DNA of 64,000 nt, from contig DNVR01000019.1 of NCBI GenBank assembly GCA_003507445.1, forward strand, positions 76,395-140,394, written 5' to 3'. A model generated the notes under the pieces. That model did no database searches and was not told where the DNA came from. It saw nothing but the letters and a program-made list of their open reading frames with translations. The position numbers and the translations under genes were made by a program. Of this stretch, positions 1,336 through 62,255 are shown piece by piece. The stretch comes from Candidatus Moraniibacteriota bacterium. GTDB lineage: Bacteria; Patescibacteriota; Minisyncoccia; Moranbacterales; GWC2-37-73. Position 1 is the stretch's first letter. The number at the start of each line of letters is the position of its first letter.

Positions 1336-1415
1336 ATAACAAACAACTTACAACTTACAACTCGCAACTCACAACTCATCGTTTGTTATTAGTTGATTGT
1401 TGTCAGTTGTTAGTT
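1336..1415. repeat. Hairpin-forming simple-repeat module (ACAACTY units followed by inverted AGTTGT units) in the recA leader
   Basis: aataacaaac at 1336-1345 is inverted to gtttgttatt at 1381-1390. These flank ACAACTTACAACTTACAACTCGCAACTCACAACTC, and agttgattgttgtcagttgttagtt is its imperfect inverse. Confidence 0.55.
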
Positions 1416-2529: not shown

Positions 2530-2558
2530 TTGACAAAAGTCCATTTTGGGTGTATAAT
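2530..2558 (+). promoter_or_regulatory. Consensus sigma70-type promoter (TTGACA-N17-TATAAT)
   Basis: TTGACA at 2530-2535, a 17-nt spacer, then TATAAT at 2553-2558. Lies directly downstream of the recA stop and upstream of the small ORF at 2646. Confidence 0.5.
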
Positions 2559-2971: not shown

Positions 2972-3529
2972 TTAGGCTCTGGAAACATAGGCTCCTTTTT
3001 CTGTATTGACGATGATTTTGTCTCCTTCGTTAACGAAAAGGGGAGTTGTAACTTTGAGTCCTGTTTCGAGGGTTACAACTTTGTCTCCGCCTGAAGATGT
3101 GTCGCCCTTGGTTCCGGGTGGAGCTTCAGTGACAACGAGAGTAACCTTAATTGGTAGTTCGATGTTCACTGGAATTTCATTGAAGTTAAGCACGCTTACC
3201 TCAGTTCCTTCAAGCAAATATAAATATGCATCGCCAATAACATCTTTGGCCAACGAAAATTGGTCATAGGTATTCATATCCATAAAAACATAGCCATCTT
3301 GCTCAGCGTAAAGATATTGAGCTTTGGATTTTGACATATCAGCTTCGTCAGCTTTGTCTGATCCATTGAAGGTTTTTTCAAGCACGCTTCCATTAAGAAG
3401 GTTTTTCAACTTTGTTCGAAGCACTGCTCCTGCGCGTCCCGTCTTGGAATGCTCGGCAGACAGTACAACATATGGAGAACCTTCCCAGAGAATATTTTTT
3501 CCTGCTTTGATATCACTTATTCCTAACAT
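2972..3529 (-). CDS. efp: Elongation factor P
   Basis: MLGISDIKAGKNILWEGSPYVVLSAEHSKTGRAGAVLRTKLKNLLNGSVLEKTF... matches the EF-P KOW/OB fold. Start moved to the ATG at 3529; the longer ORF N-terminus (MQCSFCMLHVTCYMLHES) reads through the heptamer repeat. Confidence 0.9.
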   Translation of the reverse strand: MLGISDIKAGKNILWEGSPYVVLSAEHSKTGRAGAVLRTKLKNLLNGSVLEKTFNGSDKADEADMSKSKAQYLYAEQDGYVFMDMNTYDQFSLAKDVIGDAYLYLLEGTEVSVLNFNEIPVNIELPIKVTLVVTEAPPGTKGDTSSGGDKVVTLETGLKVTTPLFVNEGDKIIVNTEKGAYVSRA

Positions 3530-3622
3530 GGATTCATGTAGCATGTAGCATGTAACATGTAGCATGCAAAAACTGCATTGCATTTTTGTTATATGTTATA
3601 TGTTTTATGTTATATGATTTGT
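3527..3622. repeat. Composite heptamer-repeat cassette E1: (CATGTAGC)n - spacer - (TATGTTA)n, abutting the efp start
   Basis: catgtagcatgtagcatgtaacatgtagcatgc ... tttgttatatgttatatgttttatgttatatga. Near-identical to 4437-4542 and related to 57332-57406, 58868-58958 and 62256-62356. Confidence 0.7.
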
Positions 3623-3956: not shown

Positions 3957-4451
3957 TTAAAATGGCACGTCTTCAAGTCTTACTTCGTCCTGTTCTTCAT
4001 CAAGGTTGATGGTTGGAATTTCTTCAGCCATAGGTGTTTGTTGTTGAGCGGTTGGACGAGGTGTTGCAGCTGCTGCTCCCATTGCCATTGGCGCTGGTCT
4101 TGGTCCTGATGAACCTTGTGCGCGTTGTCCCATTTGCATATTTTCAGCCACGATGTCAGTTGTTTTTCTTTCAACTCCGTCTTTGCCAGTGTAAGAACGT
4201 GTTTCTAATCTTCCCTCAAAATATACTTCTTGCCCTTTGGTTAGATATTGTCCAGCGATTTCAGCTAGACGCCCCCAAATTACAATGTTGTGAAATTCTG
4301 ATTTCTCTTGTTTTTGTCCAGCTTTGTCATTCCAAGTTCGGTTGGTAGCGATACCAACTGTGGTCACGGTTTGACCAGAAGGAGTGGTGCGCAATTCTGG
4401 GTCTCTAGTTAAGCGTCCGATGAGTTGAACTTTGTTAAGATTCATGTTCAT
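3957..4451 (-). CDS. ssb: Single-stranded DNA-binding protein
   Basis: MNMNLNKVQLIGRLTRDPELRTTPSGQTVTTVGIATNRTW...: an OB-fold SSB with a Gly/Pro/Ala-rich linker and an acidic tail ending ...EDVPF. Confidence 0.88.
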   Translation of the reverse strand: MNMNLNKVQLIGRLTRDPELRTTPSGQTVTTVGIATNRTWNDKAGQKQEKSEFHNIVIWGRLAEIAGQYLTKGQEVYFEGRLETRSYTGKDGVERKTTDIVAENMQMGQRAQGSSGPRPAPMAMGAAAATPRPTAQQQTPMAEEIPTINLDEEQDEVRLEDVPF

Positions 4452-4542
4452 GTAGCATGTAGCATGTATCATGTAGCATCAGAAGAAAAAATCTATCTTT
4501 TGCATTTTTGTTACACGTTATATGTTTTATGTTATATGATTT
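4437..4542. repeat. Composite heptamer-repeat cassette E2 (copy of E1), between rpsF and ssb
   Basis: catgtagcatgtagcatgtatcatgtagcatc ... tttgttacacgttatatgttttatgttatatga. The ssb start codon lies inside the CATG-repeat part. Confidence 0.7.
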
Positions 4543-5260: not shown

Positions 5261-5361
5261 AAAAAAAGCCACCAAACAAGAAAATCCTTGCTTTTAGTGG
5301 AGCATTCCAGCCTATCCACTTTTGGCTTAGTGGCGGGCTAGATTCGGACTTTCTTAGTTGT
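5261..5361 (-). ncRNA. Candidate ~100-nt small RNA (unclassified) with a consensus promoter and intrinsic terminator
   Basis: On the minus strand, TTGACC (plus 5391-5396), a 17-nt spacer, then TATAAT (plus 5368-5373). The transcript would end in a hairpin plus UUUUUUU (plus 5261-5300). No ORF is present. Confidence 0.35.
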
Positions 5362-5367
5362 AGATTG

Positions 5368-5396
5368 ATTATAGCAAGGTTTTTGGAATTGGTCAA
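5368..5396 (-). promoter_or_regulatory. Consensus sigma70-type promoter (TTGACC-N17-TATAAT) on the minus strand
   Basis: Plus-strand attata at 5368-5373 and ggtcaa at 5391-5396, with exactly 17 nt between them. Confidence 0.45.
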
Positions 5397-10177: not shown

Positions 10178-10251
10178 TTGTTATGGTTATTTTAAAAAGC
10201 AGCTTCATATGAACGTGCGAATAGGGAGTATCTAACCGAGAGGAGGAGGAC

Positions 10252-12041: not shown

Positions 12042-14936
12042 ATGCAGGAAGACAAGATAATTATAAAGGGTGCGCGCGAGCACAATTTAAAAAATATTGA
12101 TCTGGAATTGCCTCGGAACAAGTTCATTGTTTTTACGGGTCTTTCGGGCAGTGGAAAATCAACTTTGGCATTTGATACTATTTTTGCTGAAGGGCAAAGA
12201 CGATATCTGGAAAGTTTGTCGAGTTATGCGCGTCAATTTTTGGGACAGATGGATAAGCCAGATGTTGATTATATCCAAGGTCTTTCGCCTGCAATTTCTA
12301 TTGATCAAAAATCAACCTCACACAATCCTCGTTCAACAGTGGGAACGGTAACTGAAATCAATGATTACCTGAGGCTTCTTTTTGCTAAAATTGGCGTTCC
12401 TCATTGCAGTGTTTGTGGGCGTGAAATTTCAAAACTTTCCACCGATGAAATTGTGGATAGAATTTTGGATATGGGCGGAAAAAAGAAATCACAAACAATT
12501 GAAATTTCTTCGCCAATTGTGCGCGAGCGAAAAGGCGAATATTTGGCAATGTTGGATGATATGTGGAAGCGTGGTTATTCAGAGGCGATTGTGGATGGAA
12601 AACTGGAAAGATTGGAAAATTTTAAAGATATAAAATTAGGAAGATATAACAAGCATAGTATCGATATTATTGTTGATACGGTTGTTATTAATGAAGAAAA
12701 TCTTAGTAGGATTTTTGAAGGAGTTGAAAAAGCGCTCAGGCTTTCGCACGGAATTGTAAAAGTGAAATGCGTAAAAGAGTTGAAAGTTGAAAGTAGCAAG
12801 TCGAAAGAAATTGGATGTGTTGAACAGATTTTTAATCAGAATTTGTCTTGTCCGATTCACGATATTGAATTTCCAGAAATGGAGCCGCGCCTTTTTTCTT
12901 TTAATTCTCCTTATGGTGCCTGCGAGGGTTGCGAAGGTCTGGGTATGAAAAAAGAAATTGATCCTGCGCGAGTGATGCCAGATATGAATAAAACTATTGG
13001 CGAAGGAGGGATTATGCCTTGGAGTTTTAAACCTAATAATTATCAAGGAACGGTGCTAAAAGCAGTAGCTCAATATTATAGTATTCCTGACAATAAACGC
13101 TTGCGGGATTTGCCAAAAGATAAGATTGATATTTTGATGTATGGAACTGAGGACGAAGATTTGATAAAAGTTAAATATCATTTTAAAAGTGGCAGCGGTC
13201 ATTATAATGTGCGTTGGAAAGGTGTGGTGGCGTGGCTGCAGGAAAGATATCGCACGACAACCTCAGATGCAGTGCGCACAGACATTGAAAAATATATGTC
13301 GCAAAAACCTTGTTCGACTTGCGGAGGAAGCAGATATAAAAGTGACGTGCTTCTCGTTAGTGTTGGGGGTAAAAATATTTATGAAATTTCGGCGCTTAGT
13401 ATTTGGCAGTGTATCGAATTTTTTAAAAATTTAAAATTAACTGCCCGAGAGGAATTGATTGCTGGCAGAATTTTAAAAGAAATTGTTGCGCGCTTGGTTT
13501 TTCTTAATAACGTTGGTCTGGATTATTTGACTCTTGGGCGAGCAGCGTATTCTCTTTCTGGTGGAGAATCACAGCGCATACGTTTGGCTTCTCAGATTGG
13601 TTCACAACTGGTTGGAGTTTTGTATATTTTAGATGAGCCATCTATTGGTCTTCATGCTCGCGATAATGCAAAACTCATTGAAACATTAAGGCAGTTGCAA
13701 CAAATCGGCAACACATTAATTGTGATTGAACACGATGAAGAAATGATGCGCTCTGCTGACTGGCTGGTTGATATTGGTCCGGGAGCAGGAAAGCACGGCG
13801 GCGAAATTGTGGCGCAAGGATTGCCCGAAGATGTTATTAATAATCCAAAGTCACTTACTGGAAAATACCTTCGAAATGAGCTTGAAATTGAAATTCCAAA
13901 ATTCAGAAGACAAATGAAAAGAAAGAAGAGTATCACAGTGCGAGGAGCTTCTGAGCATAATTTGAAAAATGTGACAGTGGAATTTCCACTTAAAGTTTTC
14001 ACTTGCGTGACTGGAGTTTCTGGATCTGGAAAATCAACATTGGTAGAAGAAACTTTATACAAGGCGTTGGCTAATAAATTGCATCGCGCGCTTGATGTGC
14101 CTGCAAAGCATAATGAAATTATTGGCATTGAAAATATCAACAAGGTTATTATGATTGATCAATCTCCAATTGGGAGAACGCCGCGCTCAAACCCTGCCAC
14201 TTATACTGGTCTTTTTACGCATATTCGCGAGCTGTTTGCGCAAACAAAAGACGCCAAGCTTAGGGGATATGGTCCTGGCAGATTCTCATTTAACGTGGCT
14301 GGCGGGCGCTGCGACAATTGCTCTGGCGAGGGATATCTTAAAATCGAAATGCAGTTTATGCCCGATGTGTATTTGCCGTGCGATGTTTGTAATAGTAAAA
14401 GATATAACAGTGAAACTTTGCAAGTTAAATATAAGGGTAAAAATATTTCAGAGGTGCTGGCGATGACAGTTTCTGAAGGCGTTGAATTTTTTGGCGCACT
14501 TTCAAAAATATACGAACCACTTAAAGTTTTGGAGGAAGTTGGTTTGGGGTATATTGAACTTGGTCAAAGCGCCACCACACTTTCTGGTGGAGAAGCGCAG
14601 CGTATAAAACTTGCCAGCGAACTTTCGCGTCGCGCGACTGGAAATACTTTATATATTTTGGATGAGCCAACCACAGGTCTTCATTTTGATGACATCAAAA
14701 AACTTTTAACAGTGCTCAATCGTCTTGTGGATGCGGGAAACACCGTTGTTGTTATTGAACACAATATGGACGTGATTAAAACTGCAGATTGGATCATCGA
14801 TATGGGACCGGAGGGTGGCGACGGCGGCGGAAAAGTTGTTGTCACTGGTCCACCAGAAGAAGTTATCAAATATCACAAAGAAAGTTATACCGCTAAATAT
14901 TTGCGACAAGTCCTGAAGCCGAAAAGCATACAATAA
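12042..14936 (+). CDS. uvrA: Excinuclease ABC subunit A (copy 1)
   Basis: Two ABC ATPase modules ([10 protein letters not shown] and [10 protein letters not shown]), Zn-finger Cys pairs, LSGGE signatures. 964 aa. Confidence 0.95.
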   Translation: MQEDKIIIKGAREHNLKNIDLELPRNKFIVFTGLSGSGKSTLAFDTIFAEGQRRYLESLSSYARQFLGQMDKPDVDYIQGLSPAISIDQKSTSHNPRSTVGTVTEINDYLRLLFAKIGVPHCSVCGREISKLSTDEIVDRILDMGGKKKSQTIEISSPIVRERKGEYLAMLDDMWKRGYSEAIVDGKLERLENFKDIKLGRYNKHSIDIIVDTVVINEENLSRIFEGVEKALRLSHGIVKVKCVKELKVESSKSKEIGCVEQIFNQNLSCPIHDIEFPEMEPRLFSFNSPYGACEGCEGLGMKKEIDPARVMPDMNKTIGEGGIMPWSFKPNNYQGTVLKAVAQYYSIPDNKRLRDLPKDKIDILMYGTEDEDLIKVKYHFKSGSGHYNVRWKGVVAWLQERYRTTTSDAVRTDIEKYMSQKPCSTCGGSRYKSDVLLVSVGGKNIYEISALSIWQCIEFFKNLKLTAREELIAGRILKEIVARLVFLNNVGLDYLTLGRAAYSLSGGESQRIRLASQIGSQLVGVLYILDEPSIGLHARDNAKLIETLRQLQQIGNTLIVIEHDEEMMRSADWLVDIGPGAGKHGGEIVAQGLPEDVINNPKSLTGKYLRNELEIEIPKFRRQMKRKKSITVRGASEHNLKNVTVEFPLKVFTCVTGVSGSGKSTLVEETLYKALANKLHRALDVPAKHNEIIGIENINKVIMIDQSPIGRTPRSNPATYTGLFTHIRELFAQTKDAKLRGYGPGRFSFNVAGGRCDNCSGEGYLKIEMQFMPDVYLPCDVCNSKRYNSETLQVKYKGKNISEVLAMTVSEGVEFFGALSKIYEPLKVLEEVGLGYIELGQSATTLSGGEAQRIKLASELSRRATGNTLYILDEPTTGLHFDDIKKLLTVLNRLVDAGNTVVVIEHNMDVIKTADWIIDMGPEGGDGGGKVVVTGPPEEVIKYHKESYTAKYLRQVLKPKSIQ

Positions 14937-15724: not shown

Positions 15725-17212
15725 ATGAAAAAGTCAAGATTACAGCGGAAAGTAGCTGAGCTGCCTCAAAATCCGGGGGTGTATTTTTTTCGTGATCAAG
15801 AGGGTAAGATTTTATATATTGGCAAGGCGACAAACCTTCGTTCCAGAGTTCAGTCGTATTTTCGCAATGTCATCCCGAACTCGTTTCAGGATCTAGATGA
15901 GCCTAGCGAGATGCTGAAACAAGTTCAGCATGACACAAAGGGATTCTTGAGCGTTCCTGGGCGGAGTGAATGGATTGGGTTGATGGTGGCTCAAGTTGTG
16001 GATATTGATTTTGAGCAGACGGATTCAGTTTTGGAAGCGCTGATTTTGGAAAGCAATTTAATTAAAAAATATCAGCCAAAATATAATACTCTGGAGAAAG
16101 ATGATAAATCATTTTCGTATTTTGTTGTCACTAAAGAAGAATTTCCAAAAGTTTTGATTGTGAGAAAAACAGATTTAGTTTGTCATCCCGCACTTGATGC
16201 GGGTTCCAGTCACACGCACAAATCTGGCTCAGCTCTGGATTCCCGCCTACGCGGGAATGACAAGGCCTCAAAGCCTTGTAAAAAAATACAAAATACCAAA
16301 TACCAGATACCATATACCAAGACCTTCGGTCCTTATACGAGCAAGCAACAAATGCAGACCGCGCTGAAAATTATCCGTCGCATTTTCCCGTTTCATGCTG
16401 GGAAACAAAAAACTGAAAAAGGCTGTTTGGATTTTCAAATCGGTCTTTGTCCTGGGCCGTACGCTGATGCAATTTCAAAAACTGATTATAAAAAAAATAT
16501 TCGAGGGATTGAAATGATTTTGCAGGGGAAGAAAAAAAGCTTGATTTCAAAAATGGAAAAAGAAATGCAAGTTTTTTCCAAAAAAAATGAATTTGAAAAA
16601 GCGGCAGTTCTCCGAAATAAAATTTTTGCATTGCAGCACATTCGCGATGTGGCACTGATGACAAGGGAGATGGAACATGGAGCATGGAACATGGAGCATG
16701 AAATACAAGATACAAAATACCAAATACCAAATACCAGAATCGAGGCTTATGATATCTCCAACATCTCTGGACAATATGCTGTTGGTTCAATGGTGGTTTT
16801 TGAAAATGGTATGCCGAATAAATCGCAGTATCGCAAGTTTAAAATAAAAACTGTTGATGGCAGTAATGATGTGGCGATGATGAAAGAAGTTTTGTCGCGA
16901 AGATTTAATAATGATTGGTCAATGCCAGATTTGATTTTGCTGGATGGCGGACAGGGACACGTTAATATGGCAGGGGATTTGGTGCGCGAATTAGGACTAG
17001 ATTTGTTGATTGTCGGTGTGGCTAAAGGTAAGACGCGTAAAAATCTCAATTTCCAATTTCCAATTTCCAATAAAATCCCAATGTCTCAATTTCCAAAAGA
17101 AATGCAAGAGTTTTTAAATGATAAGAATCTGGTTAAATCTATTATGGATGAGGCTCACCGCTTTGCAATTGCTTATCATCGAAAATTACGCAGTAAAAAC
17201 GCCTTAAAATAA
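15725..17212 (+). CDS. uvrC: Excinuclease ABC subunit C (GIY-YIG, UVR and RNase H-like endonuclease domains, no C-terminal HhH), carrying several in-frame repeat/MITE insertions
   Basis: GVYFFRDQEGKILYIGKATNLRSRVQSYFR (GIY-YIG), EFEKAAVLRNKIFALQ (UVR), and a DISNISGQ...LLDGGQGH endonuclease core. Inserted peptides: SFQDLDEPSEMLKQVQHD, CHPALDAGSS...DSRLRGNDK, NTKYQIPYTK, MEHGAWNMEHEIQDTKYQIPNT and NFQFPISN. Confidence 0.85.
   Translation: MKKSRLQRKVAELPQNPGVYFFRDQEGKILYIGKATNLRSRVQSYFRNVIPNSFQDLDEPSEMLKQVQHDTKGFLSVPGRSEWIGLMVAQVVDIDFEQTDSVLEALILESNLIKKYQPKYNTLEKDDKSFSYFVVTKEEFPKVLIVRKTDLVCHPALDAGSSHTHKSGSALDSRLRGNDKASKPCKKIQNTKYQIPYTKTFGPYTSKQQMQTALKIIRRIFPFHAGKQKTEKGCLDFQIGLCPGPYADAISKTDYKKNIRGIEMILQGKKKSLISKMEKEMQVFSKKNEFEKAAVLRNKIFALQHIRDVALMTREMEHGAWNMEHEIQDTKYQIPNTRIEAYDISNISGQYAVGSMVVFENGMPNKSQYRKFKIKTVDGSNDVAMMKEVLSRRFNNDWSMPDLILLDGGQGHVNMAGDLVRELGLDLLIVGVAKGKTRKNLNFQFPISNKIPMSQFPKEMQEFLNDKNLVKSIMDEAHRFAIAYHRKLRSKNALK
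15869..15934. mobile_element. P2-family palindromic MITE inserted in-frame in uvrC (66 bp)
   Basis: gtcatcccgaactcgtttcaggatctag atgagc ctagcgagatgctgaaacaagttcagcatgac. The same GCTGAAAC/GTTCAGC arms occur twice in the elp3-like gene. Confidence 0.6.
16182..16262. mobile_element. P1-family palindromic MITE inserted in-frame in uvrC (~81 bp)
   Basis: gtcatcccgcacttgatgcgggttccag ... ctggattcccgcctacgcgggaatgaca. Same termini and arms as the intergenic P1 copies. Confidence 0.6.
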
Positions 17213-17892: not shown

Positions 17893-19413
17893 ATGCAAAA
17901 AATAACAGTTCCAATCATTGGAATGCATTGCAAATCTTGTGAAATTCTTGTTGAAAATAAGCTTTCTGAAATCAGCAAGATCAAAAAAATAGACGTCAAT
18001 TGTAAGAAAGGAACAGCTGATATTTATTACGAATCTCAAAAACCCAATATGGTGGAAATAGAAAAAGCCATCAGGGAAGCGGGTTATGCGGTTGGAGTGG
18101 CAGAAAAAAAACCGTTGTTCAGTCGGAATATAAATGAATATAAAGATTTGGGGATCGCCTTTTTGTTTCTGTTTGGTATTTATTTGATTGCAAAAAATTT
18201 AGGGCTAGCTGACATTGGAGTAAGTTCCGCATCAAATCCATCGAGCTTGGGCGTGGTTTTCTTGGTGGGGATTACGGCTGGGATTTCAACTTGTATGGCG
18301 TTGGTGGGAGGTTTAATTTTGGGAATTTCTGCTCGTCATTCTGAGAAACATCCTGAGGCTACTGCCGCGCAAAAGTTTCGTCCGCATTTATTTTTCAATG
18401 CCGGCAGGATTGTGATTTACGCCTTGTTGGGTGGACTGCTTGGTTTGATCGGTTCTTCATTTCAATTGTCGGGAGTGACTTTGGGAATTCTGACAATTGC
18501 AGTAGGAGTTGTGATGTTGTCACTTGGACTAAAATTGATTGGAATTTTTCCTCGTTTGGAAAATGGTGGAATAGCTTTGCCGAAAAGCATCAGCAGTGCG
18601 TTGGGCATTCACCCTGTTAAATCCTGCGAAGCAGGTGCTCGCAGTAGCGAGCAATTTAACAGGGTAAAAAATAATACCAAAGAATATAGTCATAAAAATT
18701 CATTCGTTATGGGTGGACTGACATTTTTCTTGCCCTGTGGCTTCACGCAAGCGATGCAACTTTATGCTGTGAGCAGTGGAAGTTTCACTCAGGGTGCAAT
18801 GATTATGGGTATTTTTGCACTTGGAACAGCTCCTGGACTCTTGGGTATTGGCGGTCTGGCTAGTGTGGTGCGCGGAATTTTTGCTCAAAGATTTTTTAAG
18901 TTCGCTGGAATCCTCGTGATATTTTTGGCGATGTTTAATATTGCCAATGGATATAATCTGACTGGCTGGCAAGTGTCGAAAGTTGAAAGTCGAAAGTTGA
19001 AAGTTGAAAGTGTGATTGATCCTAATGTGACAATGGAAAACGGCGTGCAGGTTGTTAGAATGAAGGAAATTGCCAGTGGATATTCTCCGAACAAATTCAC
19101 AATCAAAAAAGACGTGCCAGTGAAATGGATTATTGATGCTCAGGCTCCGTATTCTTGTGCCAGCAGTCTTGTGGTTTCAAGTTTGAAAATTCAAAAAACT
19201 TTAAAGGCAGGCGAAAACATTATTGAATTTACACCAACAAAAACAGGTAAAATCCCATTTTCTTGTTCTATGGGTATGTATACTGGCGCATTCACAGTTA
19301 TTGATGAAAATAGTGATGAGGTGGTGGTTGAAGACGACCTGGTTGAAAAGCAGGCTTCTGGTGGAATATGCAATAAGCAAGGATGTAATATAAATAAAGA
19401 TCGAATTAAATAA
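17893..19413 (+). CDS. HMA-domain membrane protein (N-terminal MxCxxC metal-binding domain, multi-TM permease-like domain with conserved Cys, C-terminal cupredoxin-like domain)
   Basis: GMHCKSCE heavy-metal-associated motif, several TM helices (FLVGITAGISTCMALVGG and FFLPCGFTQAM), and a C-terminal beta domain with conserved Cys. An in-frame (GAAAGTT)n repeat lies at 18975-19012. Confidence 0.6.
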   Translation: MQKITVPIIGMHCKSCEILVENKLSEISKIKKIDVNCKKGTADIYYESQKPNMVEIEKAIREAGYAVGVAEKKPLFSRNINEYKDLGIAFLFLFGIYLIAKNLGLADIGVSSASNPSSLGVVFLVGITAGISTCMALVGGLILGISARHSEKHPEATAAQKFRPHLFFNAGRIVIYALLGGLLGLIGSSFQLSGVTLGILTIAVGVVMLSLGLKLIGIFPRLENGGIALPKSISSALGIHPVKSCEAGARSSEQFNRVKNNTKEYSHKNSFVMGGLTFFLPCGFTQAMQLYAVSSGSFTQGAMIMGIFALGTAPGLLGIGGLASVVRGIFAQRFFKFAGILVIFLAMFNIANGYNLTGWQVSKVESRKLKVESVIDPNVTMENGVQVVRMKEIASGYSPNKFTIKKDVPVKWIIDAQAPYSCASSLVVSSLKIQKTLKAGENIIEFTPTKTGKIPFSCSMGMYTGAFTVIDENSDEVVVEDDLVEKQASGGICNKQGCNINKDRIK

Positions 19414-19564: not shown

Positions 19565-22351
19565 ATGAAAAGAATAAACCTGTCTCTTTCTGGAATGCAC
19601 TGTGCTTCCTGTGCAATGTTGATTGAAAAAGTGCTTGCAAAAACTCCTGGTGTACAAAAAGCCAGTGTGAATTTTTCTGCAGAAAAAGTTTTGATTGATT
19701 TTGATGAAAATATAACCGATCCGCAAAAACTTATTGCTGCAATAGTTAAAGGTGGATATGGTGCTGAAGAAATTGATGCTAAAGATAGTGAATTTGAAAA
19801 GAAAAAAAGGGATCATGAGATCTCAGAATATTTTTCAAAATTTATGTTTAGCGCTTTGCTTAGTGTGCCGATGTTGTATTTTATGCTTTTGGATTTTTTT
19901 AAATGGCTTCCAGGGGAAAAAACTTTTGCGCCATACATTGGTGTGTTTTCATTGCTTTTGACAATTCCTGTGCAGTTTGTGATTGGTTCAGGCTTTTACA
20001 AGGGAATGTGGTCATCGCTAAGGATGAAGACGTTTAATATGGACAGCTTGATTGCAATTGGAACTTCGACTGCTTTTTTCTTCAGTTTGTATAACTATGT
20101 GACATATGTCATTGCTAATAATTCCTTGATCGGAGTTGGTGGTATGAAAATTCCTGATCTGTATTTTGAAACAGCAGCTTATTTGATCACATTTGTGATT
20201 CTTGGAAAATGGTTGGAAATTAGAACAAAGGGAAAGACATCTGATGCGATCAAAAAATTGATGGGGCTGCAAGCGAAAACAGCCCGCGTGATTCGTGGTG
20301 GCGAGACGCTTGATATTGCAATTGATGACGTGATTCATGGTGATATCATTATTGTTCGCCCTGGAGAAAAAGTTCCTGTTGATGGAAAAATTACCAAGGG
20401 AACATCTGCCGTGGATGAATCTATGATTACAGGAGAAAGCTTGCCAGTAGAAAAAAATATCGGAAGTATGGTTGTTGGTGGAACTATTAATAAGACAGGA
20501 AGCTTTGAGTTTGAAGCTACAAAAATTGGTTCAGAAACAACATTAGCTCAAATCATTCGCTTGATTGAAGAAGCGCAAGGATCAAAAGCACCGATTCAAA
20601 ATTTTGCCGACAGTATTTCTGCTTGGTTTGTTCCAGCTGTGATTGGAGTTGCAATTTTGACTTTCATTGTCTGGTATTTTTTCTTGGGAGCAACTTTAGC
20701 TTTTGCTTTGTTGGCATTTACTTCGGTAATTGTGATTGCATGCCCATGTGCACTTGGTTTGGCAACCCCGACATCATTAATGGTTGGAACAGGTAAGGGC
20801 GCTGAATATGGCGTGCTTGTAAAAGGTGGAGAAGCGCTTGAAGCTGCAAGCAATATTTCAGCTGTAGTCTTTGACAAGACTGGAACGCTTACCAAAGGAA
20901 AGCCTGAGGTGGTAAAAATAATTTCAAATCCTGCTTTTGATTTTGATGAGGATAAGATTTTAAAAATATCATCAAGCATTGCAAAACATTCCAATCATCC
21001 CTTGTCTCAAGCTGTTGTAAGATATGGCGAAAAACAAAATATTCAACTAGCTGATTTTGGAGATTTTCAAGAAGTCCCTGGAAAAGGAATAATTGCAAAA
21101 TGCTTAACACATAATAAGGAAATAGTTTTGGGTAATATTAGAATTCTAGAGCAAGTAGGAGTCCAAACTTCTTGGGCAAAAAATCTTCTGGAAAATGAAT
21201 CTGTAAGCGCTGGGACATTACTTTTTGTGGTGCATAATGGCGATGTTGTGGGGGCAATTTCAATTGCTGATGAAGTAAAAGAAGAATCAAAAAAAGTGGT
21301 GGCAAAACTTCAAAAAATGGGTATTGAGGTTTGGATGATTACTGGAGACAATGCGCGCACAGCAAAAGCTATTGGCTTGCAGGTTGGAATCACAAATATT
21401 TTGGCAGAAGTTTTACCAGAAGATAAAGCTAACGAAGTTAAGAAACTTCAAGCTCAAAAAATAAAAAAACATTTCCATTTGTTTGGAAATTGGAAATTAG
21501 AAATTGGAAATTCCACCCGCAGGGTGGCTATGGTTGGAGATGGAATTAATGACGCTCCTGCACTAGCTCAAGCTAATGTAGGAATCGCAATGGGATCAGG
21601 AACTGATGTGGCAATGGAGGCAGGCGACATTGTTATAATGAAAAGTGATCTGAATGATGTGGTAACTTCATTTGAACTTTCAAAAGAAACGATGGGTAAA
21701 ATAAGACAAAATATGTTTTTTGCTTTATTTTACAATGTGATTGGAATTCCAATTGCTGCTCGTGTTTTCTTTGGAATCGGCTTGGTGTTAAAACCAGAAC
21801 TAGCAGGACTTGCTATGGCGATGAGTTCTATTTCAGTAGTTGGAAATTCATTGCTTCTTAAATTATTCAAGCCTGGCAAGAGAAACTATATTTCTTTGGT
21901 TGCGCCAATTATTATGATGGTAGTTTTCACGTTCGGATTTTATGAATTTGCAAAATTCAGCAGTGGAATGGAGAATACAGTTATTAATGAGGAGCAAATA
22001 AGGGTTGAATTTAATAAATTGAATTTGAATGCCCAAATAGAAATCATAAGTGAAGAGGCTGGAGTAAAGGCATTTTATTTTACTGATGAAAATAATGTTC
22101 CAAAAGAATTGCGGGAAGAAATAAACAGCAAAAGTTTCACGCCTGAAATAATCAATGGAAAAAAATATCAGAAAGTTTATATTGGTTGGGTAGAGGCGCA
22201 GATGATGATTGAAAAAGAACTTATCCAAAAATCAGGGGACAGAGCGGATGATTTTTTTGGAAACAGTGTCATCATTGAAATCTTGCCCAAAACCAAAACC
22301 ATTCTCGACAATTTCCATTTTGTCGGAGCTGATTTTCAGATCAAGAAATAG
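19565..22351 (+). CDS. copA: Copper-translocating P-type ATPase (CopA-like) with an N-terminal HMA domain, a ~170-aa C-terminal extension, and an in-frame heptamer-repeat insertion
   Basis: [11 protein letters not shown] ([12 protein letters not shown]), DKTGTLT, and [17 protein letters not shown]. The insertion [18 protein letters not shown] (21470-21514) falls just before the GDGINDAP hinge. Confidence 0.88.
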
Positions 22352-22536
22352 TTTTAAAAAATACACTAAGGCGGGTTCATATTTGATGGGTCTGCTTTTT
22401 TGTATCTGTTAATATTGAGTGACGATCAGAAGGGTTTTGACAATTATCCTGTTTGTGATAATGTGTAATATCCAATAAATTATTTTTTTGGAGCAGTTAT
22501 TTGTCAATAAAATCAACGAACAAAAGGAGAGATACA

Positions 22537-28429: not shown

Positions 28430-30154
28430 ATGAAAAATGAAATTCAAAAATTAATAGAAAGTGCCTTAAATGAGGCAAAAAGGGCTAATGATTGGGTTGA
28501 TTTTGAGATGCCTGAAATTCTCGTTGAATATCCAAAAAGTGAACAATTTGGGGATTATACAACAAATGTTGCTATGATTTTAGCAAAAAAAGTTGGGAAA
28601 AATCCGATGGAAATAGCTGAGATTATTAACTTACAACTTACAACTTACAACTTACAACAATTTGAAAAAATAGAGGTGGCTCAGCCGGGATATATTAACT
28701 TTTATCTTTCCAAAAAGTATTTGCAAGAAATCGTTGAAAAAATAAATACTGAAAAAGAAAAATTTGGAAATTCTGATAAAAAAAATGAGAAAGTATTGGT
28801 AGAATTTTCACAACCAAATACTCATAAAGAATTTCATATCGGCCATTTAAGGAATGTGTTTATTGGAGATGCGCTTGTTAAAACGATAAAGAAATCCGGC
28901 AGCGAGGTAGTTGCTGCAAATTATATCGGGGACACCGGGACACATATTGCAAAGTGTTTATGGGGAATTGTTAAATTTCATAATGGGGAAGATTTGGATA
29001 AGATATCAAACAAGGCTGAATTTCTAGGAAAGGTTTACAGTGAAGCTGCACAGGCTATTGAGAATAATCCTGAATTCGAAGAAGAATTTAAAAATGTCCA
29101 AAAAGAATTTGAAAATGGTGATCAGGAATTGGTTCAATTGTGGAGCAAGACAAAAAAATGGTCGTTGGATGAATTTCAAAAGATTTATGAAAAACTCGGA
29201 GTATCTTTTGACGTTTACTTTTGGGAAAGCGAGGAAGAACTGAAAGGCAAGGAAATGCTAAAAGAATTGATGGGGGTATCCTGTATTAAGGAAAGTCAGG
29301 GAGCTATCGTGGCAGATCTTGAAAAATATGACTTAGGAGTTCTAGTGCTGGTCAGAAAGGACGGTAGCGCCTTGTATGGATTGAAAGATATACCTCTGGC
29401 TGTGAAAAAATTCAAAGAATTTTCCATAGATCGTAGCATAGTGGTTGTTGATTTGCGTCAGAGTCTATATTTCAAACAGATATTCAAAATTCTTGAATGC
29501 ATGGGATTTCACAAAGATATGAAACACGTGGGCTACGAGTTTGTATCCCTGAAGGGAAGTGAGACGATGTCGTCCAGGAAAGGAAACATCATACCAGCAA
29601 CATATTTGATTGATGAAACCGTAAAGCGTGTAAAGGAAAAATTTCCCAATACCGATGTTGCTGAAGAAATTGGCATAGGTGCGTTGAAATTTTATATGCT
29701 GAAATATTCCTCACAGTCAAAAATAGAATACGATATTGAAGAGTCTGTAAGATTAGATGGCGCAACCGGACCGTATGTACAATATGCGCATGCGCGTATT
29801 TGCAATATCTTGGAAAAGGCAAAGGGAATAAAAGGATTAATGGGAGAAAAGGGAAAAATGGGCAATGTGGATTTGCAATTATTAATCCATGAGAAGGAAG
29901 TAAGTTTGATAAAAGAGCTTAATAAATTTCCGGAATTGGTTGCTGTGGTTGCTGAGGATTATGAAGTTCACAAGTTTGCCCATTATGCCATCAAATTGGC
30001 TGACAAATTTCACAGTTTTTATGATGCTTGTAAGGTGATTGATGAGGGCAATGAAGAACTGACAATCGCTAGACTTTCTCTGATAAATGCTGTTAGAATA
30101 GTATTAGCAGAAACCCTGGATTTGATAGGGGTGGATGCACCTGAAAAAATGTAG
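28430..30154 (+). CDS. argS: Arginine--tRNA ligase with an in-frame (ACAACTT)n insertion
   Basis: HIGH-like region (FSQPNTHKEFHIGHLRNVFIGD), with KMSSRKG in the KMSKS position. The insertion NLQLTTYNLQQ is encoded by aacttacaacttacaacttacaacttacaa at 28626-28660. Start uncertain (28394 or 28430). Confidence 0.88.
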   Translation: MKNEIQKLIESALNEAKRANDWVDFEMPEILVEYPKSEQFGDYTTNVAMILAKKVGKNPMEIAEIINLQLTTYNLQQFEKIEVAQPGYINFYLSKKYLQEIVEKINTEKEKFGNSDKKNEKVLVEFSQPNTHKEFHIGHLRNVFIGDALVKTIKKSGSEVVAANYIGDTGTHIAKCLWGIVKFHNGEDLDKISNKAEFLGKVYSEAAQAIENNPEFEEEFKNVQKEFENGDQELVQLWSKTKKWSLDEFQKIYEKLGVSFDVYFWESEEELKGKEMLKELMGVSCIKESQGAIVADLEKYDLGVLVLVRKDGSALYGLKDIPLAVKKFKEFSIDRSIVVVDLRQSLYFKQIFKILECMGFHKDMKHVGYEFVSLKGSETMSSRKGNIIPATYLIDETVKRVKEKFPNTDVAEEIGIGALKFYMLKYSSQSKIEYDIEESVRLDGATGPYVQYAHARICNILEKAKGIKGLMGEKGKMGNVDLQLLIHEKEVSLIKELNKFPELVAVVAEDYEVHKFAHYAIKLADKFHSFYDACKVIDEGNEELTIARLSLINAVRIVLAETLDLIGVDAPEKM

Positions 30155-30156
30155 AA

Positions 30157-30245
30157 ATAACTAATAACAAACAACTAACTACTAACAACAAGGGCTTAAC
30201 AAAGCATTTCTGTTATAAGTTGTAAGTAGTAAGTTGTCAGTTAAT
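30157..30245. repeat. Long imperfect hairpin built from ACAACTA / TAGTTGT repeat units (argS-glycosyltransferase spacer)
   Basis: caactaactactaacaac at 30167-30184 is inverted as gttgtaagtagtaagttg at 30225-30242. Confidence 0.55.
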
Positions 30246-31412: not shown

Positions 31413-31439
31413 GCATATCATAGAAATATAAAAGCAATG

Positions 31440-31690
31440 GGGAGGTTATCACCTCGTCGCCCTGGTGAAATATTTACTTTGTAAATTTCACAGGGCAAGC
31501 TGCGAAAAGAAATCCTTTGGGAAAGTAGAATTCGTCGGGTAAGCCCGTTATAGCTGTAAAGAGAGCTTATTAGGCAGTAGCTTCTTAGCTTTTTAGGAAA
31601 TGCATTTTTCTAAGAAGCTAAGAAGCTAAAAAGCTAAGAAGCTAAATTAAGGTGGTACCACGTTGGAAGACGTCCTTATGCATTTATTTG
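31440..31690 (+). promoter_or_regulatory. T-box riboswitch leader (probably Ile-specific) upstream of ileS
   Basis: T-box sequence aaattaaGGTGGTACCACGttgg, a terminator-like hairpin plus U-run directly before ileS, and an AUC in the gaggttATCacctc hairpin. Contains an (AAGCTAAG)4 tandem/inverted repeat. Confidence 0.6.
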
Positions 31691-31724: not shown

Positions 31725-34676
31725 ATGGCATTCAAAAAAGTTGATCCGAAACAATCATTTCCAGAGATGGAAAAAGAAATTTTGAAATTTTGGGCTCAGG
31801 AGAAAATATTTGAAAAATCTTTGGAAATCCGAAAAGATTCACAGGAATATACTTTTTATGATGGGCCGCCTTTTGCAACAGGCACGCCACACTATGGTCA
31901 TTTGGTTGGATCCACAATGAAAGATGTGGTGCCGCGTTATTGGACGATGCGTGGATTTCACGTGGAAAGAAAATGGGGATGGGATTGTCATGGGCTGCCG
32001 ATTGAAAATATCGTGGAAAAAGAATTAGGTTCAAAAGCTAAAAGTGAAATTGAAAAATTGGGCGTGGAAAAATTTAACGAACTTTGTCGTAGTAAAGTTC
32101 TGGAATATGTTGACGTCTGGAAAGTTGTCATCAATCGTTTGGGACGCTGGGCTGATATGGAAAATGCTTACAAGACGATGGATTTGCCGTATATGGAATC
32201 TGTCTGGTGGGTCTTTAAGGAGCTTTGGAATAAGGGTCTTATTTATGAAGGTTATCGTTCGATGCACGTTTGTCCTCGCTGCGAGACTACACTTTCTCAG
32301 CAAGAGGTTAGTGAAGGATATATTGATGTGAAAGATTTATCAGTTATTGCGAAATTCGAACTTATTGACCCCGTAAAATCCTCGCAAGACTCGGATCACG
32401 GGGCAGGTGAACCGAAGACTTTCATTTTGGCCTGGACAACAACTCCTTGGACTTTGATTGGTAATGTGGCGCTAGCTGTTAATCCAGAAATGGAATATGT
32501 CTATGTGGAAACAATAAACTCGGAAAAAGATGGAACATTTTCGGAAGAAGTTTTTATTGTGGCTAAAGATAGAGTGGGTGATTTATTTAAAGATAAAAAA
32601 ATTGAAATCGTGCGTGAAGTTTTAGGTTCACAATTGGTTGGCAAAAAATATAAACCAGTTTTTGATTATTACGCTACGTTTGATATTGAAAATTTTGAGA
32701 ATGGTTGGAAAGTTGTGGGCGCAGATTTTGTGGGAGCTGAAGACGGAACAGGCGTTGTGCATATTGCTCCGGCCTTCGGAGAGGACGATTTAAATTTGGG
32801 CAAAGAAAAGAATTTGCCGTTTGTGCAGCACGTTGGAATGGATGGAATCATAAAAAGCCAAGCTGGCGAATTTGCTGGACTGCATATAAAACCAACTGAT
32901 GATCGCACTGCAACTGACGTGGAAATTATAAAATATCTGGCTAAAAGCGGAACTCTTTTTGCCAAAGAAAAATATGAGCATAGTTATCCTCATTGTTGGA
33001 GATGTGACACTCCACTAATGAATTATGCAACCAGCTCTTGGTTTGTGAAAGTTGCTGATATAAAATCAGATGCAATTGATTTGGCCAAAGAAATTCGTTG
33101 GTCTCCTGAACATATTAAGGAGGGACGTTTTGGAAAGTGGCTGGAAGGTGCACGCGATTGGTCAATTTCACGTCAGCGTTTTTGGGCTTCTGTTATACCA
33201 ATTTGGAAATGTGAGTGCGGAGAAATGAAGGTGTTTGGATCCGTGATGGAGCTCGAGGCTGCTAGTGGAGAAAAAATAACAGACCTGCATAAACACATTG
33301 TCGATAAAATTGTGCTTAAATGTGATTCTTGCGGCAAGGATATGCATCGAGTGCCAGATGTCTTGGACACTTGGTTCGATTCTGGTTCAATGCCATATGC
33401 GCAACAACATTATCCTTTTGAAAATGCTGAGCAATTTGAAAAGAATTTTCCAGCTGAATTCATTGCGGAAGGTGTGGATCAAACACGCGCTTGGTTTTAT
33501 TATTTGCATATTATTGCAAGTGCAATTAAAAAAGCTCCTGCTTATAAAAATGTAATTGTGAACGGAACAGTTTTGGCAGAGGATGGAAAGAAAATGAGTA
33601 AGCGTCTTTCGAATTATCCTGATCCAATGGAAATGTTTGAAAAATATGGTGCAGATTCAGTTAGATTTTATTTGATGAGCTCACCAGTGGTGGCTGCACA
33701 AAATTTGAATTTTTCAGAAAAAGATGTGGCAGAAATTGTGCGTGGAATGATGCGAATGTTTTGGAATTCGTATTCCTTTTTTGTGCTGTATGCAAATATT
33801 GATAAATGGGAACATAAAGACCAATTCACACATTCAACTGCAACGAATTTATTGGATCGTTGGATTCTTTCTGAGCTTAACACTTTGGTAATTTCAGTGC
33901 ATAGCGGAATGGAAAACTATGAATTGCATCGAGCTGCTCGAGCATTTCCAAAATTTATTGATGATATGTCCAACTGGTATGTTCGAAGATCGCGCAAGCG
34001 TTTTTGGAAAAGTGAAAATGATGGCGACAAAAGCCAGGCATATGCAACACTTCATCACGTGCTTGTGACACTGACTAAAATGATGGCACCGTTTTCACCT
34101 TTTATCGCTGAAGAAATTTATAAAAATCTTACTGGCAAGGAGTCTGTGCATTTGGCTGATTTGCCGACAGGGGATTATCATCACGTCGATGAGCTTTTGA
34201 ATGATCAAATGCACAAAGTTCGTGAGATTGTGACTCAAGGTTTGCAACTTCGCTCTCAAGCTAAAATCAAAGTTCGTCAACCGCTGGCTAAATTTTCAAT
34301 TTTCGATTTTCAATTTCCGAATGAATTGGTTGAGATAATCAAGGATGAATTGAATGTGAGAGAAATTATTATGGATCGGGAAGATAAAAATGAAATGATT
34401 TTGGATACAGAAATCACAGAAGATCTTGCGCAAGAAGGTGTGGCACGTGAGATTGTGCGGCACATTCAAGAGATGCGTAAAGAAGCAGGCTATGATGTTG
34501 ACAATCGCATTAAAGTGTGCTATAATGGAAAATCAGAGGAATTTGAGAAGTTTAATGCTCTGATTGCCAAAGAAACCCTTGCTGACGCCATTACTGAAGG
34601 TGTTTGCCAAGACGCTGATTTGACCAAGGAACTTAAATTAGACGAAAAAGTGCTAGTAATTTCTATTAAAAGATGA
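31725..34676 (+). CDS. ileS: Isoleucine--tRNA ligase
   Basis: PPFATGTPHYGHL (HIGH), KMSKRL (KMSKS), and a CP1 editing domain. A possible in-frame repeat-derived segment KFSIFDFQFPNE lies at 34290-34319. Confidence 0.93.
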   Translation: MAFKKVDPKQSFPEMEKEILKFWAQEKIFEKSLEIRKDSQEYTFYDGPPFATGTPHYGHLVGSTMKDVVPRYWTMRGFHVERKWGWDCHGLPIENIVEKELGSKAKSEIEKLGVEKFNELCRSKVLEYVDVWKVVINRLGRWADMENAYKTMDLPYMESVWWVFKELWNKGLIYEGYRSMHVCPRCETTLSQQEVSEGYIDVKDLSVIAKFELIDPVKSSQDSDHGAGEPKTFILAWTTTPWTLIGNVALAVNPEMEYVYVETINSEKDGTFSEEVFIVAKDRVGDLFKDKKIEIVREVLGSQLVGKKYKPVFDYYATFDIENFENGWKVVGADFVGAEDGTGVVHIAPAFGEDDLNLGKEKNLPFVQHVGMDGIIKSQAGEFAGLHIKPTDDRTATDVEIIKYLAKSGTLFAKEKYEHSYPHCWRCDTPLMNYATSSWFVKVADIKSDAIDLAKEIRWSPEHIKEGRFGKWLEGARDWSISRQRFWASVIPIWKCECGEMKVFGSVMELEAASGEKITDLHKHIVDKIVLKCDSCGKDMHRVPDVLDTWFDSGSMPYAQQHYPFENAEQFEKNFPAEFIAEGVDQTRAWFYYLHIIASAIKKAPAYKNVIVNGTVLAEDGKKMSKRLSNYPDPMEMFEKYGADSVRFYLMSSPVVAAQNLNFSEKDVAEIVRGMMRMFWNSYSFFVLYANIDKWEHKDQFTHSTATNLLDRWILSELNTLVISVHSGMENYELHRAARAFPKFIDDMSNWYVRRSRKRFWKSENDGDKSQAYATLHHVLVTLTKMMAPFSPFIAEEIYKNLTGKESVHLADLPTGDYHHVDELLNDQMHKVREIVTQGLQLRSQAKIKVRQPLAKFSIFDFQFPNELVEIIKDELNVREIIMDREDKNEMILDTEITEDLAQEGVAREIVRHIQEMRKEAGYDVDNRIKVCYNGKSEEFEKFNALIAKETLADAITEGVCQDADLTKELKLDEKVLVISIKR

Positions 34677-35874: not shown

Positions 35875-36000
35875 TCAAATTTCCAATTTCAAATTTCCAA
35901 TTTCCAATAAAATCATAATGACTAAATTTTAAATGACCAAACTTGAGTTCATAATTGAAAATTTAATGAGAATTGAGAACTGAAAATTGAAAATTATGGA
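35875..36000. repeat. Hairpin-forming (AATTTCC)n / (GAAAATT)n repeat module
   Basis: aaatttccaatttcaaatttccaatttccaat ... ttgaaaatttaatgagaattgagaactgaaaattgaaaatt. Confidence 0.55.
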
Positions 36001-57331: not shown

Positions 57332-57406
57332 GAAACATGAAACATGTAGCATGTAACAAAAAAGCTTTTTAATTCAGATTTGTTATATGTTGTATGTTAT
57401 ATGATA
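57332..57406. repeat. Composite heptamer-repeat cassette E3 in the divergent elp3/methyltransferase promoter region
   Basis: catgaaacatgaaacatgtagcatgtaac ... tttgttatatgttgtatgttatatgatatatg. Confidence 0.65.
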
Positions 57407-57407
57407 T

Positions 57408-58106: not shown

Positions 58107-58211
58107 CCTAAAAATTTTGGTCTTGACGAGTTTTTTATTCTAGTGTAATATACCCCTAGAGGGTATTTACCATATAAGGTAGAATTTTTAATTTTTAATT
58201 CTTAATTTTCA

Positions 58212-58867: not shown

Positions 58868-58958
58868 CAGACGTATAACATAAAATATAAAACATGGAGC
58901 ATGGAACATGGAGCAAGAATTTTTGATCCAATGATCTATGCTGTATGATCCATGATTC
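58868..58958. repeat. Composite heptamer-repeat cassette E4 upstream of trxB
   Basis: gtataacataaaatataaaacatggagcatggaacatggagc ... atgatctatgctgtatgatccatgattcatg, abutting the trxB ATG. Confidence 0.65.
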
Positions 58959-60256: not shown

Positions 60257-60467
60257 TTTCCTCCTGGTTTTGGAAAGAGTATTAGCACTAGAACGAGGAT
60301 TTTTTGATTTCACCTCCTTTATTTTTGGTTCTAGCGCATCAATTTGTAAGCTACTTCTAGCTTAATACTTTAACAATTAATGTCAAATGCAGTATATTTA
60401 ATGTTTGGATTCTCAGCTATGGACAAATATTTTCTTTTTGGTATAATTGTTTTTGTAGCTCAAATAT

Positions 60468-60696: not shown

Positions 60697-60738
60697 CAGT
60701 TTTTTTATAAAATATTTTGCAGTAAAAAGGAGGCAGAA

Positions 60739-62253: not shown

Positions 62254-62255
62254 AT

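Follow-up and report, generated by a model that had tools for sequence, protein, structure and literature searches.

The gaps in front of several genes in a 64,000-nt stretch of a Candidatus Moraniibacteriota bacterium genome (GenBank assembly GCA_003507445.1, contig DNVR01000019.1, positions 76,395-140,394 of the forward strand; the whole stretch is hereafter called the window) are filled by a cassette of tandem heptamers. Each cassette is a quasi-palindrome that spans the interval between the upstream stop codon and the start codon that follows, and is laid out as two inverted arms of about four 7-nt units (~30 nt) each around an unconserved loop of 10-35 nt. In the reading that we favour, and to which we give about an even chance, the cassette is a dispersed, replaceable quasi-palindromic heptamer-repeat element of mRNA leaders and intercistronic spacers, which has an A-rich, weakly folded mRNA strand and sometimes supplies the start codon. 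The CATG/CATA cassettes described first are one family of a larger genome-wide class of heptamer quasi-palindromes of ~90-110 bp. By its EF-P protein the window groups with Candidatus Moranbacteria/Moraniibacteriota, and it is 100% identical to contig DOKX01000004.1 of assembly GCA_003510165.1.

CATG-family cassettes in the window

Arrays were detected with Tandem Repeats Finder and our own periodicity scan, with shuffle controls for the motif counts. Double CATGNAG units (with up to two mismatches) occur 31 times in the window against 5.3 expected, a count that none of the shuffled sequences reached, and double TATAACA units occur 23 times against 0.7 expected. There are 18 strict period-7 arrays in the 64 kb, and each of the other periods from 4 to 12 gives none or one. 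The arrays are heptanucleotide long simple repeats in the sense of tandem head-to-tail units of 5-11 nt that run longer than expected for the genome.

A first-pass annotation of this DNA had placed such arrays at the 5′ ends of efp, ssb, a radical-SAM Elp3-like gene, trxB and rplK, and both the arrays and the gene names prove correct at all five sites. The efp cassette (3530-3622, minus strand) fills the rpsR-efp spacer, with a proximal arm at 3535-3566 (CATGTAG x4.6 on the plus strand), a loop at 3567-3586 and a distal arm at 3587-3616 (TGTTATA x4.3 on the plus strand). The ssb cassette (4446-4542, minus strand; arms 4449-4479 and 4509-4538) fills the rpsF-ssb spacer, and the rplK cassette (62254-62356, plus strand; distal arm 62257-62286, proximal arm 62320-62349) fills the nusG-rplK spacer. 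The whole divergent spacer between the Elp3-like gene (minus strand) and a methyltransferase gene (plus strand) is a cassette to which we assign no strand (57332-57407; arms 57329-57358 and 57381-57410). The list of five was nevertheless incomplete, as a sixth copy occupies the 5′ untranslated region of secE (61268-61360, plus strand), with a distal arm at 61268-61297 (CATATAG x4.3) and a proximal arm at 61331-61360, which Tandem Repeats Finder gives as TGTTACA x4.3 and which has the unit TTACATG on the gene strand.

The uniform architecture described earlier, read at five sites as about four TATAACA-like heptamers, a spacer and about four CATGNAG-like heptamers abutting the start codon, applies to most of the copies. 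It fails at trxB, where the atypical copy in the trxA-trxB spacer (58868-58963, plus strand) has three arrays: TATAACA-like units at 58874-58892, CATGGAG at 58893-58915 and ATGATYC at 58924-58963. The G-rich array is distal in this copy, and the proximal ATGATYC array extends into the first trxB codons.

The two arrays of a cassette had been treated as separate motifs; they are imperfect inverted copies of each other. At efp, CATGTAG faces CATATAA (the reverse complement of TGTTATA), the two units differing by G-to-A changes. Arm-to-arm alignment of 11 CATG-family copies gave 253 Watson-Crick positions, 66 A.C mismatches (as read on the mRNA strand), 22 G.U pairs and 31 transversions, the efp copy itself contributing 24 Watson-Crick positions, eight A.C mismatches on the same strand and two transversions. 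The efp and ssb copies, reported as nearly identical over ~95 bp, do have similar arms, but their loops differ, and overall identity is 83% with 12 gap columns. No loop conservation was found among the six CATG-family copies.

Often the last ATG of the proximal array shares its register with the start codon or itself serves as the start codon, as at secE, the Elp3-like gene, the methyltransferase gene, trxB and, in another metagenomic contig (L113), murD. The secE start codon is the last ATG of its proximal arm, and the Elp3-like and methyltransferase start codons are each in register with the adjoining array. The ATGs of the repeats also generate spurious N-terminal extensions of open reading frames (e.g., MQCSFCMLHVTCYMLHESM), as the first-pass annotation had recognized; public gene calls give EF-P a length of 203 aa, and its N-terminus MLGISDIK is kept in relatives with other spacers.

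Placement and turnover among relatives

We compared the spacers of the rpsF-ssb-rpsR-efp operon in 30 relatives and the window. In about 30 relatives the rpsR-efp spacer nearly always holds paired inverted tandem 7-9-mers, the unit sequences of which are quite different. Sixty of the 80 operon spacers fold at z < -3 on at least one strand, and a long ungapped inverted alignment, with a median arm of 38 nt, is present in 54 of the 77 spacers of 60-180 nt. The arms lie a median of 6.5 nt from the stop codon and 7.5 nt from the start codon. Since the rpsR-efp spacers of more distant relatives are only 24-28 nt long, the element is not essential.

Array density was determined over 31 Moranbacteria loci (~490 kb). 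Per 10 kb, spacers hold 7.0 arrays where the flanking genes are co-directional, 4.7 where they diverge and 0.72 where they converge, against 0.39 for coding sequence. Spacers that lead into a gene thus hold arrays at about 10 times the density of convergent ones, in support of the placement at gene starts that the first-pass annotation had described. An inverted partner accompanies 39 of 65 intergenic arrays, whereas all 15 coding arrays lack one.

The genomes that share 91-96% identity with the window form haplotype groups with different cassettes in all three operon spacers, and the replacement between them and the window is exact, from stop codon to start codon; relative to these genomes, the CATG family has displaced others at efp and ssb. 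At the ssb site these relatives carry a ATGCAAAT-type cassette instead of the CATG family, which is found there in the window only; the CATG cassette at efp is common to the window and two of the relatives (L206 and L207), and is 100% identical between them within a surrounding alignment of ~96%. At nusG-rplK in a 93%-identical relative (L209/L211), both arms have changed in match (CATAGAA/TTCCATG versus CATATAA/CTACATG), and the CATA-versus-CATG difference between the arms persists. At secE, L209 has no cassette: the promoter and small 5′ hairpin are conserved, and a leader of only 35 nt stands in place of the window's 93-nt cassette. Similar elements can also be found at different loci: over 81 nt, an ACAACTT element before recA matches the rpsR-efp spacer of a relative (L002) at 89% identity, whereas coding regions are ~75% identical.

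Cassettes of the CATG family precede rplQ, murG, rpmA and murD in the same orientation in other metagenomic contigs, and a whole cassette lies in frame within the cca gene of one contig (L184). The earlier proposal of a portable module is therefore sound in so far as the cassette is dispersed, start-adjacent and replaceable. A single metagenome scan with CATGNAGCATGNAGCATG returned mostly unrelated repeats from organisms of 29-69% GC, among which cassettes of the same kind were present only in L088, L164, L184, L190 and L113, with a similar array in L117; orientation statistics over this whole set are not meaningful.

We observed no copy-number variation of the phase-variation type, the spacers being identical among the two to six contigs, from different samples, of each haplotype group in this small sample, and on that ground the cassettes were not classed as phase-variable contingency repeats. 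Scans of viral contigs ruled out phage-specific arrays, as the arrays are not restricted to phages. Mobile palindromes of the types known as MITEs (miniature transposable elements with inverted repeats), repetitive extragenic palindromic (REP) elements and Correia elements were also rejected: loops are unconserved among the six copies, and the filled and empty secE sites have no target-site duplication. The stop-to-start replacement was weighed in the same comparison, and the cassettes do not fall in this class.

In the favoured reading, the arrays would arise and be homogenised by replication slippage of ~7-nt units, and the partner arm would arise and co-evolve through intrastrand (snap-back) template switching. 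New spacers could be reached through ectopic copying or recombination, and selection would set where copies persist and what shape they take. We dropped an "inside-out" growth of the palindrome, which predicts the best pairing near the loop, as Watson-Crick positions make up 0.72 of the outer third of the arms, 0.62 of the middle third and 0.68 of the inner third.

Strand asymmetry, promoters and gene starts

Predicted folding of the CATG family is strongly asymmetric. For the efp cassette, the antisense RNA has a predicted free energy of -39.3 kcal/mol (z -6.7) and the sense RNA one of -14.1 (z -0.6). The antisense-strand RNA is predicted to form a helix of ~30 bp with G.U pairs also at ssb (z -6.1), the Elp3-like gene (z -4.1) and rplK (z -5.0), whereas on the mRNA strand the family has little more predicted structure than shuffled sequence (z -0.6 to -2.2). 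The trxB copy folds slightly better on its sense strand (z -3.9 versus -2.4 for antisense). Over the 80 operon spacers the mean z is -3.8 for sense and -4.2 for antisense, and the antisense strand is the more stable in 57. Scanning free energy along the entire window did not pick out the elements: base composition dominates the sliding-window signal, which is too noisy.

These structures raise the possibility that the cassette acts as a hairpin, either in RNA, as an RNase III-type processing or stability element in the manner of Correia and enterobacterial repetitive intergenic consensus (ERIC) elements, or on the antisense or template strand, where it would halt antisense transcription. The strength of the predicted structures in the 80 spacers, the greater stability of most antisense strands and the matched arm changes at nusG-rplK would all fit such a role, and in the ileS T-box leader (see below) one stem consists of paired arrays, so that RNA helices are possible. 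We nonetheless consider a structural role quite improbable. The mRNA strand of the CATG family barely beats shuffled sequence, ordinary G+C-rich intrinsic terminators are already present and occupy the convergent spacers, and a hairpin gives no reason for a 7-nt tandem build.

The mismatches between arms also argue against it. A.C mismatches on the mRNA strand exceed G.U in 44 of 54 spacers (the reverse holds in five, and five are tied), with totals on that strand of 237 A.C versus 108 G.T and 124 A.A versus 65 T.T. Because A.A exceeds T.T by the same factor as A.C exceeds G.U, selection for antisense structure is disfavoured as the source of the A.C excess, and the equal excess points to enrichment of A on the mRNA strand and not to selection of G.U pairs. 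The sense strand of the spacers has an A content of 0.39 and a G content of 0.13, compared with a G content of 0.21 in coding sequence. The simplest reading of the strand asymmetry is therefore A enrichment and G depletion in mRNA leaders. The same bias strips AUGs from the distal arm of the CATG family, turning CATG into CATA. On our favoured account, A-biased arm mismatches on the mRNA strand would keep the leader G-poor and weakly folded, and the distal arm would lose its ATGs as the proximal ATG register merges with, or comes to supply, the start codon.

The first-pass annotation had interpreted the distal (TATAACA)n array as tandem -10 boxes and the whole cassette as a promoter. TAACAT and TATAAC are indeed similar to the -10 hexamer, and the divergent spacer between the Elp3-like and methyltransferase genes, which is 76 nt long and wholly cassette, has no canonical promoter in its scanned flanks, so that some promoter must overlap it. 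A promoter function of the cassette is very unlikely all the same. We scanned for a -35 element, a 16-18-nt spacer and a -10 element whose second base is A and whose sixth is T; on the gene strand, none of the cassettes contains such a site, and they have neither a -35 element nor a TG extension.

Consensus sigma-70-type promoters are instead located upstream of the same operons, with sites matching 10-12 of 12 positions 5′ of the rpsF region (5396-5368, minus strand; TTGACC-17-TATAAT with TG), before tRNA-Ala (60420-60447, plus strand; TGGACA-16-TATAAT) and before the secE cassette (61195-61223, plus strand; TTGACA-17-TACACT). The promoter of csoR-trxA-trxB is at 58123-58151 (plus strand; TTGACG-17-TAATAT with TG). 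Cassettes sit between genes that are probably co-transcribed (rpsF-ssb-rpsR-efp, nusG-rplK and trxA-trxB). Since consensus promoters lie upstream and the secE promoter is kept without the cassette in L209, we regard the cassettes as transcribed parts of operons; at secE the cassette is not conserved together with its gene, as a sigma-70 promoter would be. Members of the wider class also lie between tRNA genes, in a T-box leader and inside genes, and most unit families lack a TATAAT-like unit.

The promoter survey yielded some further features. A perfect consensus promoter (TTGACA-17-TATAAT) lies at 2530-2558 (plus strand) in the convergent recA/efp spacer, with a terminator-like hairpin at 2573-2600, within ~15 nt of it. 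The promoter at 5396-5368 belongs to a candidate small RNA of ~100 nt (5265-5396, minus strand) with the terminator CCACTAAAAGCAAGG...CTTGTTTGGTGG and a T run, which is 98% identical to the sequence of a relative (L027) between flanks of 84-88% and has no Rfam match. Directly after the promoter at 58123-58151, in front of csoR (58123-58167), is an inverted repeat, ATACCCCTAGAGGGTAT, which resembles the operator of a CsoR-type repressor that would control csoR-trxA-trxB.

Other known classes did not accommodate the cassettes. A scan for intrinsic terminators, sought as short G+C-rich stems with loops of 3-8 nt and a T run behind them, flagged none of them, their stems being AT-rich and their loops 10-35 nt long, and in an Rfam 15 scan of the window only two tRNAs reached the gathering score, the cassettes matching no family. 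By reading, no RYYYAAC...GTTRRRY cores as in integron attC sites occur at the cassette ends, and the neighbouring genes belong to the housekeeping core. We also set aside diversity-generating retroelements, CRISPR repeats and telomerase-like synthesis, for want of the sequence features that define them.

The cassette-bearing genes had been contrasted with others in the window because they lack a Shine-Dalgarno sequence. This contrast does not hold: of 51 genes, whether preceded by a cassette or not, only five have a Shine-Dalgarno-like sequence, and these mostly encode hypothetical proteins, so that its absence is not specific to the cassette. Avoidance or replacement of the Shine-Dalgarno sequence by the cassette was rejected accordingly, the lack of one being the norm of this genome. 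Strong Shine-Dalgarno sequences (GAGGAGGAGG, AAGGAGA, CAGGAGG and AAGGAGG) occur at 10238-10251, 22520-22533, 59932-60270 (minus strand) and 60725-60738. The open reading frame at 60739-61143 is absent from L209. Genes with a strong Shine-Dalgarno sequence may have been acquired recently.

A further possibility is that the cassette is a functional translation-initiation leader, in which the ribosome (e.g., via protein S1) or an RNA-binding protein binds the start-adjacent arrays, which would replace the Shine-Dalgarno sequence. An equivalent proposal has been made for the TAACTGA repeats of Beggiatoaceae (PMC4679880). Arrays concentrate ahead of gene starts and are scarce in convergent spacers, end at a median of 7.5 nt from the start codon, and in several copies have an ATG in register with it; the mRNA strand is A-rich, G-poor and weakly folded; and the CATG family precedes typically highly expressed housekeeping genes such as rplK, rplQ, rpmA, efp, ssb and secE. 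We regard this explanation as unlikely. About 90% of the genes lack a Shine-Dalgarno sequence and most of these have no array, and a sequence-specific binder is unlikely for units that are wholly different between loci and genomes. The cassette can moreover be absent (secE in L209), distant from the start codon (rplA), between tRNA genes or inside coding sequence, and upstream out-of-frame AUGs would be expected to reduce initiation at the true start. In the reading that we prefer, the element would be the leader or spacer of genes without a Shine-Dalgarno sequence, and it would at most modulate translation initiation without starting transcription.

Other unit families, known repeats and implications

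Several other unit families form elements of the same class in the window. Paired inverted ACAACTT/TAGTTGT arrays lie in the spacer between a RodZ-like gene and recA (1343-1413, plus strand). Arrays of the AACTAAC family fill the 79-nt gap between tRNA-Ala and tRNA-Ile (60548-60619, plus strand), 3′ of the promoter at 60420-60447, and this element is kept in L209; an AACTAAC/GTTGTAA pair is found in the spacer between argS and a glycosyltransferase gene (30159-30242, plus strand), and a weaker AATTTCC/TGAAAAT pair between recO and a DUF11 gene (35878-35995). Paired inverted 8-mers, ACAAATNT/ATTTGTAG, follow the rplK stop codon (62791-62878, plus strand) and sit 5′ of a non-repeat rplA leader, so they are not adjacent to a start codon. 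Another pair of inverted 8-mers (31578-31645, plus strand; arms 31578-31596 and 31610-31645) constitutes stem III of the ileS T-box leader (31428-31680, plus strand). This leader was matched at E = 1.5e-9 with 47 bits and does not reach the Rfam gathering score of 93, which the insertion of repeats in stem III probably explains.

Single in-frame arrays of the same families are present in uvrA (12778-12807), uvrC (16283-16319, 16666-16736 and 17047-17071), copA (21483-21512), argS (28628-28658), ileS (34291-34316), tgt, rlmN (54478-54508; gene assigned from sequence motifs) and a DsbD-like gene, and the in-gene arrays also include one at 18978-19011. The uvrA loop has a different tandem array in each relative and is absent from a distant one. 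In tgt, the array is AATTTCC x4.4 (38994-39024, plus strand), which encodes ISNFQFPISN. Tgt homologues range from 371 to 466 aa, and in them GRHGRLFxWK is followed by an insertion hot spot; some have nothing there, and in many others it holds "SNFQFPISN", encoded by an AATTTCC array. Among the Moranbacteria homologues (P0002-P0116) the spread of Tgt lengths stems from two insertion hot spots, and some of the proteins carry 'CHSGLDPES...LNQVQDD' peptides that resemble translated G+C-rich repeat elements. Besides its three heptamer arrays, uvrC has in-frame insertions (15900-16340) that translate as 'MLKQVQHD' and 'LDSRLRGNDK', the latter encoded in G+C-rich palindromic DNA (TTCCCGCCTACGCGGGAA, ~16180-16270). 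We take these peptides to match small palindromic repeats of many bacteria.

Inverted heptamer pairs, including AATTTCC, also occur in Peribacteria loci (53% GC) and in viral contigs (55-67% GC). AT-rich pairs of this kind were located in L270 (11098-11210), L272, L036 (9823-9950) and L037 (3829-3960 and 6753-6784); the pair in L270 follows the stop codon of one gene and comes before the next gene's Shine-Dalgarno sequence and start codon.

Several of these observations weigh against the reading that we favour. We observed no mechanism of spread, and because loops are unconserved between copies and neither target-site duplications nor conserved ends were seen, simple transposition of whole elements fits poorly. 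Arrays are about 10 times rarer in convergent spacers, unlike what is expected for a purely selfish or mutational element, and this depletion could reflect a function at the 5′ ends of genes. Neither the near-uniform ~30-nt arm length nor the recurrence of the AT-rich AATTTCC unit in Peribacteria and GC-rich viral contigs is accounted for. Orthologous copies can be as conserved as the flanking genes or more so, as the efp cassette illustrates, which could mean constraint. The idea of an open leader is weakly backed by in silico flips of the element, which lower the predicted accessibility of the start site in six of eight cases, secE and trxB being the exceptions, and the Elp3-like/methyltransferase copy may have weak promoter activity based on a -10 element alone. 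Arm length, convergent depletion, maintained arm complementarity and the occurrence of AATTTCC across phyla together keep a functional or enzymatic origin open.

One such origin would be a dedicated system, namely an enzyme that writes or inserts ~30-nt tandem arrays or a protein that binds DNA in a 7-bp register; the arrays would be the footprint or the binding sites of this system. Arrays have a uniform length (median 27-31 nt, in spacers as in genes), five AATTTCC copies share the same phase and ends, and the unit recurs in other phyla and in GC-rich viral contigs. We hold this to be the least probable explanation considered here, as no candidate gene was found within the window, the unit sequences are many and unrelated, and heptamers are the commonest long simple repeats in many bacteria, where they are ascribed to polymerase slippage (PMC4679880, PMC4692102). 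A broader form of the idea, in which a dedicated activity shared by candidate-phyla-radiation bacteria and some phages writes or recognises ~30-nt heptamer tracts and sets inverted pairs that bound genes without a Shine-Dalgarno sequence, for example as a new means of marking cistron starts or of initiating translation, strikes us as a long shot.

The cassettes can be compared with several known kinds of repeat. REP, ERIC, Neisseria Correia, MITE and Rickettsia palindromic elements are imperfect palindromes of ~100 bp that lie in transcribed intergenic regions and are co-transcribed with genes, and Rickettsia palindromic elements also insert in frame into protein-coding genes. In contrast to these elements, the cassettes have no conserved termini, target-site duplication or interior, and their arms are tandem-repetitive; they also favour the 5′ sides of genes, whereas REP elements favour the 3′ sides. 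By analogy, the in-gene arrays resemble the in-frame elements of Rickettsia and the tandem repeats of Borgs.

A positional parallel is found in the direct TAACTGA repeats, which occur in two to six copies a few nucleotides before start codons in marine Beggiatoaceae, cyanobacteria and Bacteroidetes, in front of genes without a Shine-Dalgarno sequence that include ribosomal protein genes, and in some cases within open reading frames (MacGregor, 2015; PMC4679880). Moranbacteria cassettes share the start-proximal heptamers, the genes without a Shine-Dalgarno sequence and the occasional location in open reading frames. We did not assign them to this class, as TAACTGA is a single heptamer in one orientation and in direct arrays (one inverted case in 170 sets; PMC4679880), whereas here many units and paired inverted arms are the rule. 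As summarized in later work, the long simple repeats of Mrazek et al. (2007) have units of 5-11 nt, most commonly 7 nt, are mostly intergenic and are ascribed to polymerase slippage (PMC4679880, PMC4692102). The tandem head-to-tail heptamers and their mostly intergenic location are alike; the cassettes differ in forming inverted pairs from stop to start codon, in comprising several families per genome, in their tight length of ~30 nt and in being tolerated in frame inside genes although the unit is not a multiple of 3 nt.

GGGAATC and GGGGAYT repeats of Xanthomonas and Nostoc are intergenic, ~26 nt long and located between co-directional genes (Rehm et al., 2015; PMC4692102). They resemble the cassettes in that position is kept while sequence and length vary among related genomes; they are, however, G-rich and form G-quadruplexes, whereas the cassettes are AT-rich and palindromic with a G-poor mRNA strand. 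Borg tandem repeats are pervasive, quickly replaced, both intergenic and in frame within genes, and of independent origin at the same sites (PMC9879509). Rapid replacement between and within genes is common to both systems, but Borg genic units are multiples of 3 nt in direct arrays on an archaeal extrachromosomal element, as opposed to paired inverted heptamers. Literature searches turned up no report of such repeats from Patescibacteria or Moranbacteria. While start-adjacent heptamer repeats are known from other phyla, their paired inverted form in Moranbacteria appears to be undescribed.

The genomes of candidate-phyla-radiation bacteria are tiny, yet most gaps of ~100 nt before genes hold fast-changing heptamer quasi-palindromes, and the same repeats are tolerated inside essential proteins. 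They also pose a hazard for annotation, through spurious N-terminal extensions in public gene calls and through a T-box leader that falls below the Rfam threshold with a repeat in its stem. If the elements are passive, they present a clear case of repeat-driven turnover of spacers and protein loops in a streamlined genome. If they are functional, they matter for the question of how ribosomes locate start codons when about 90% of genes have no Shine-Dalgarno sequence.

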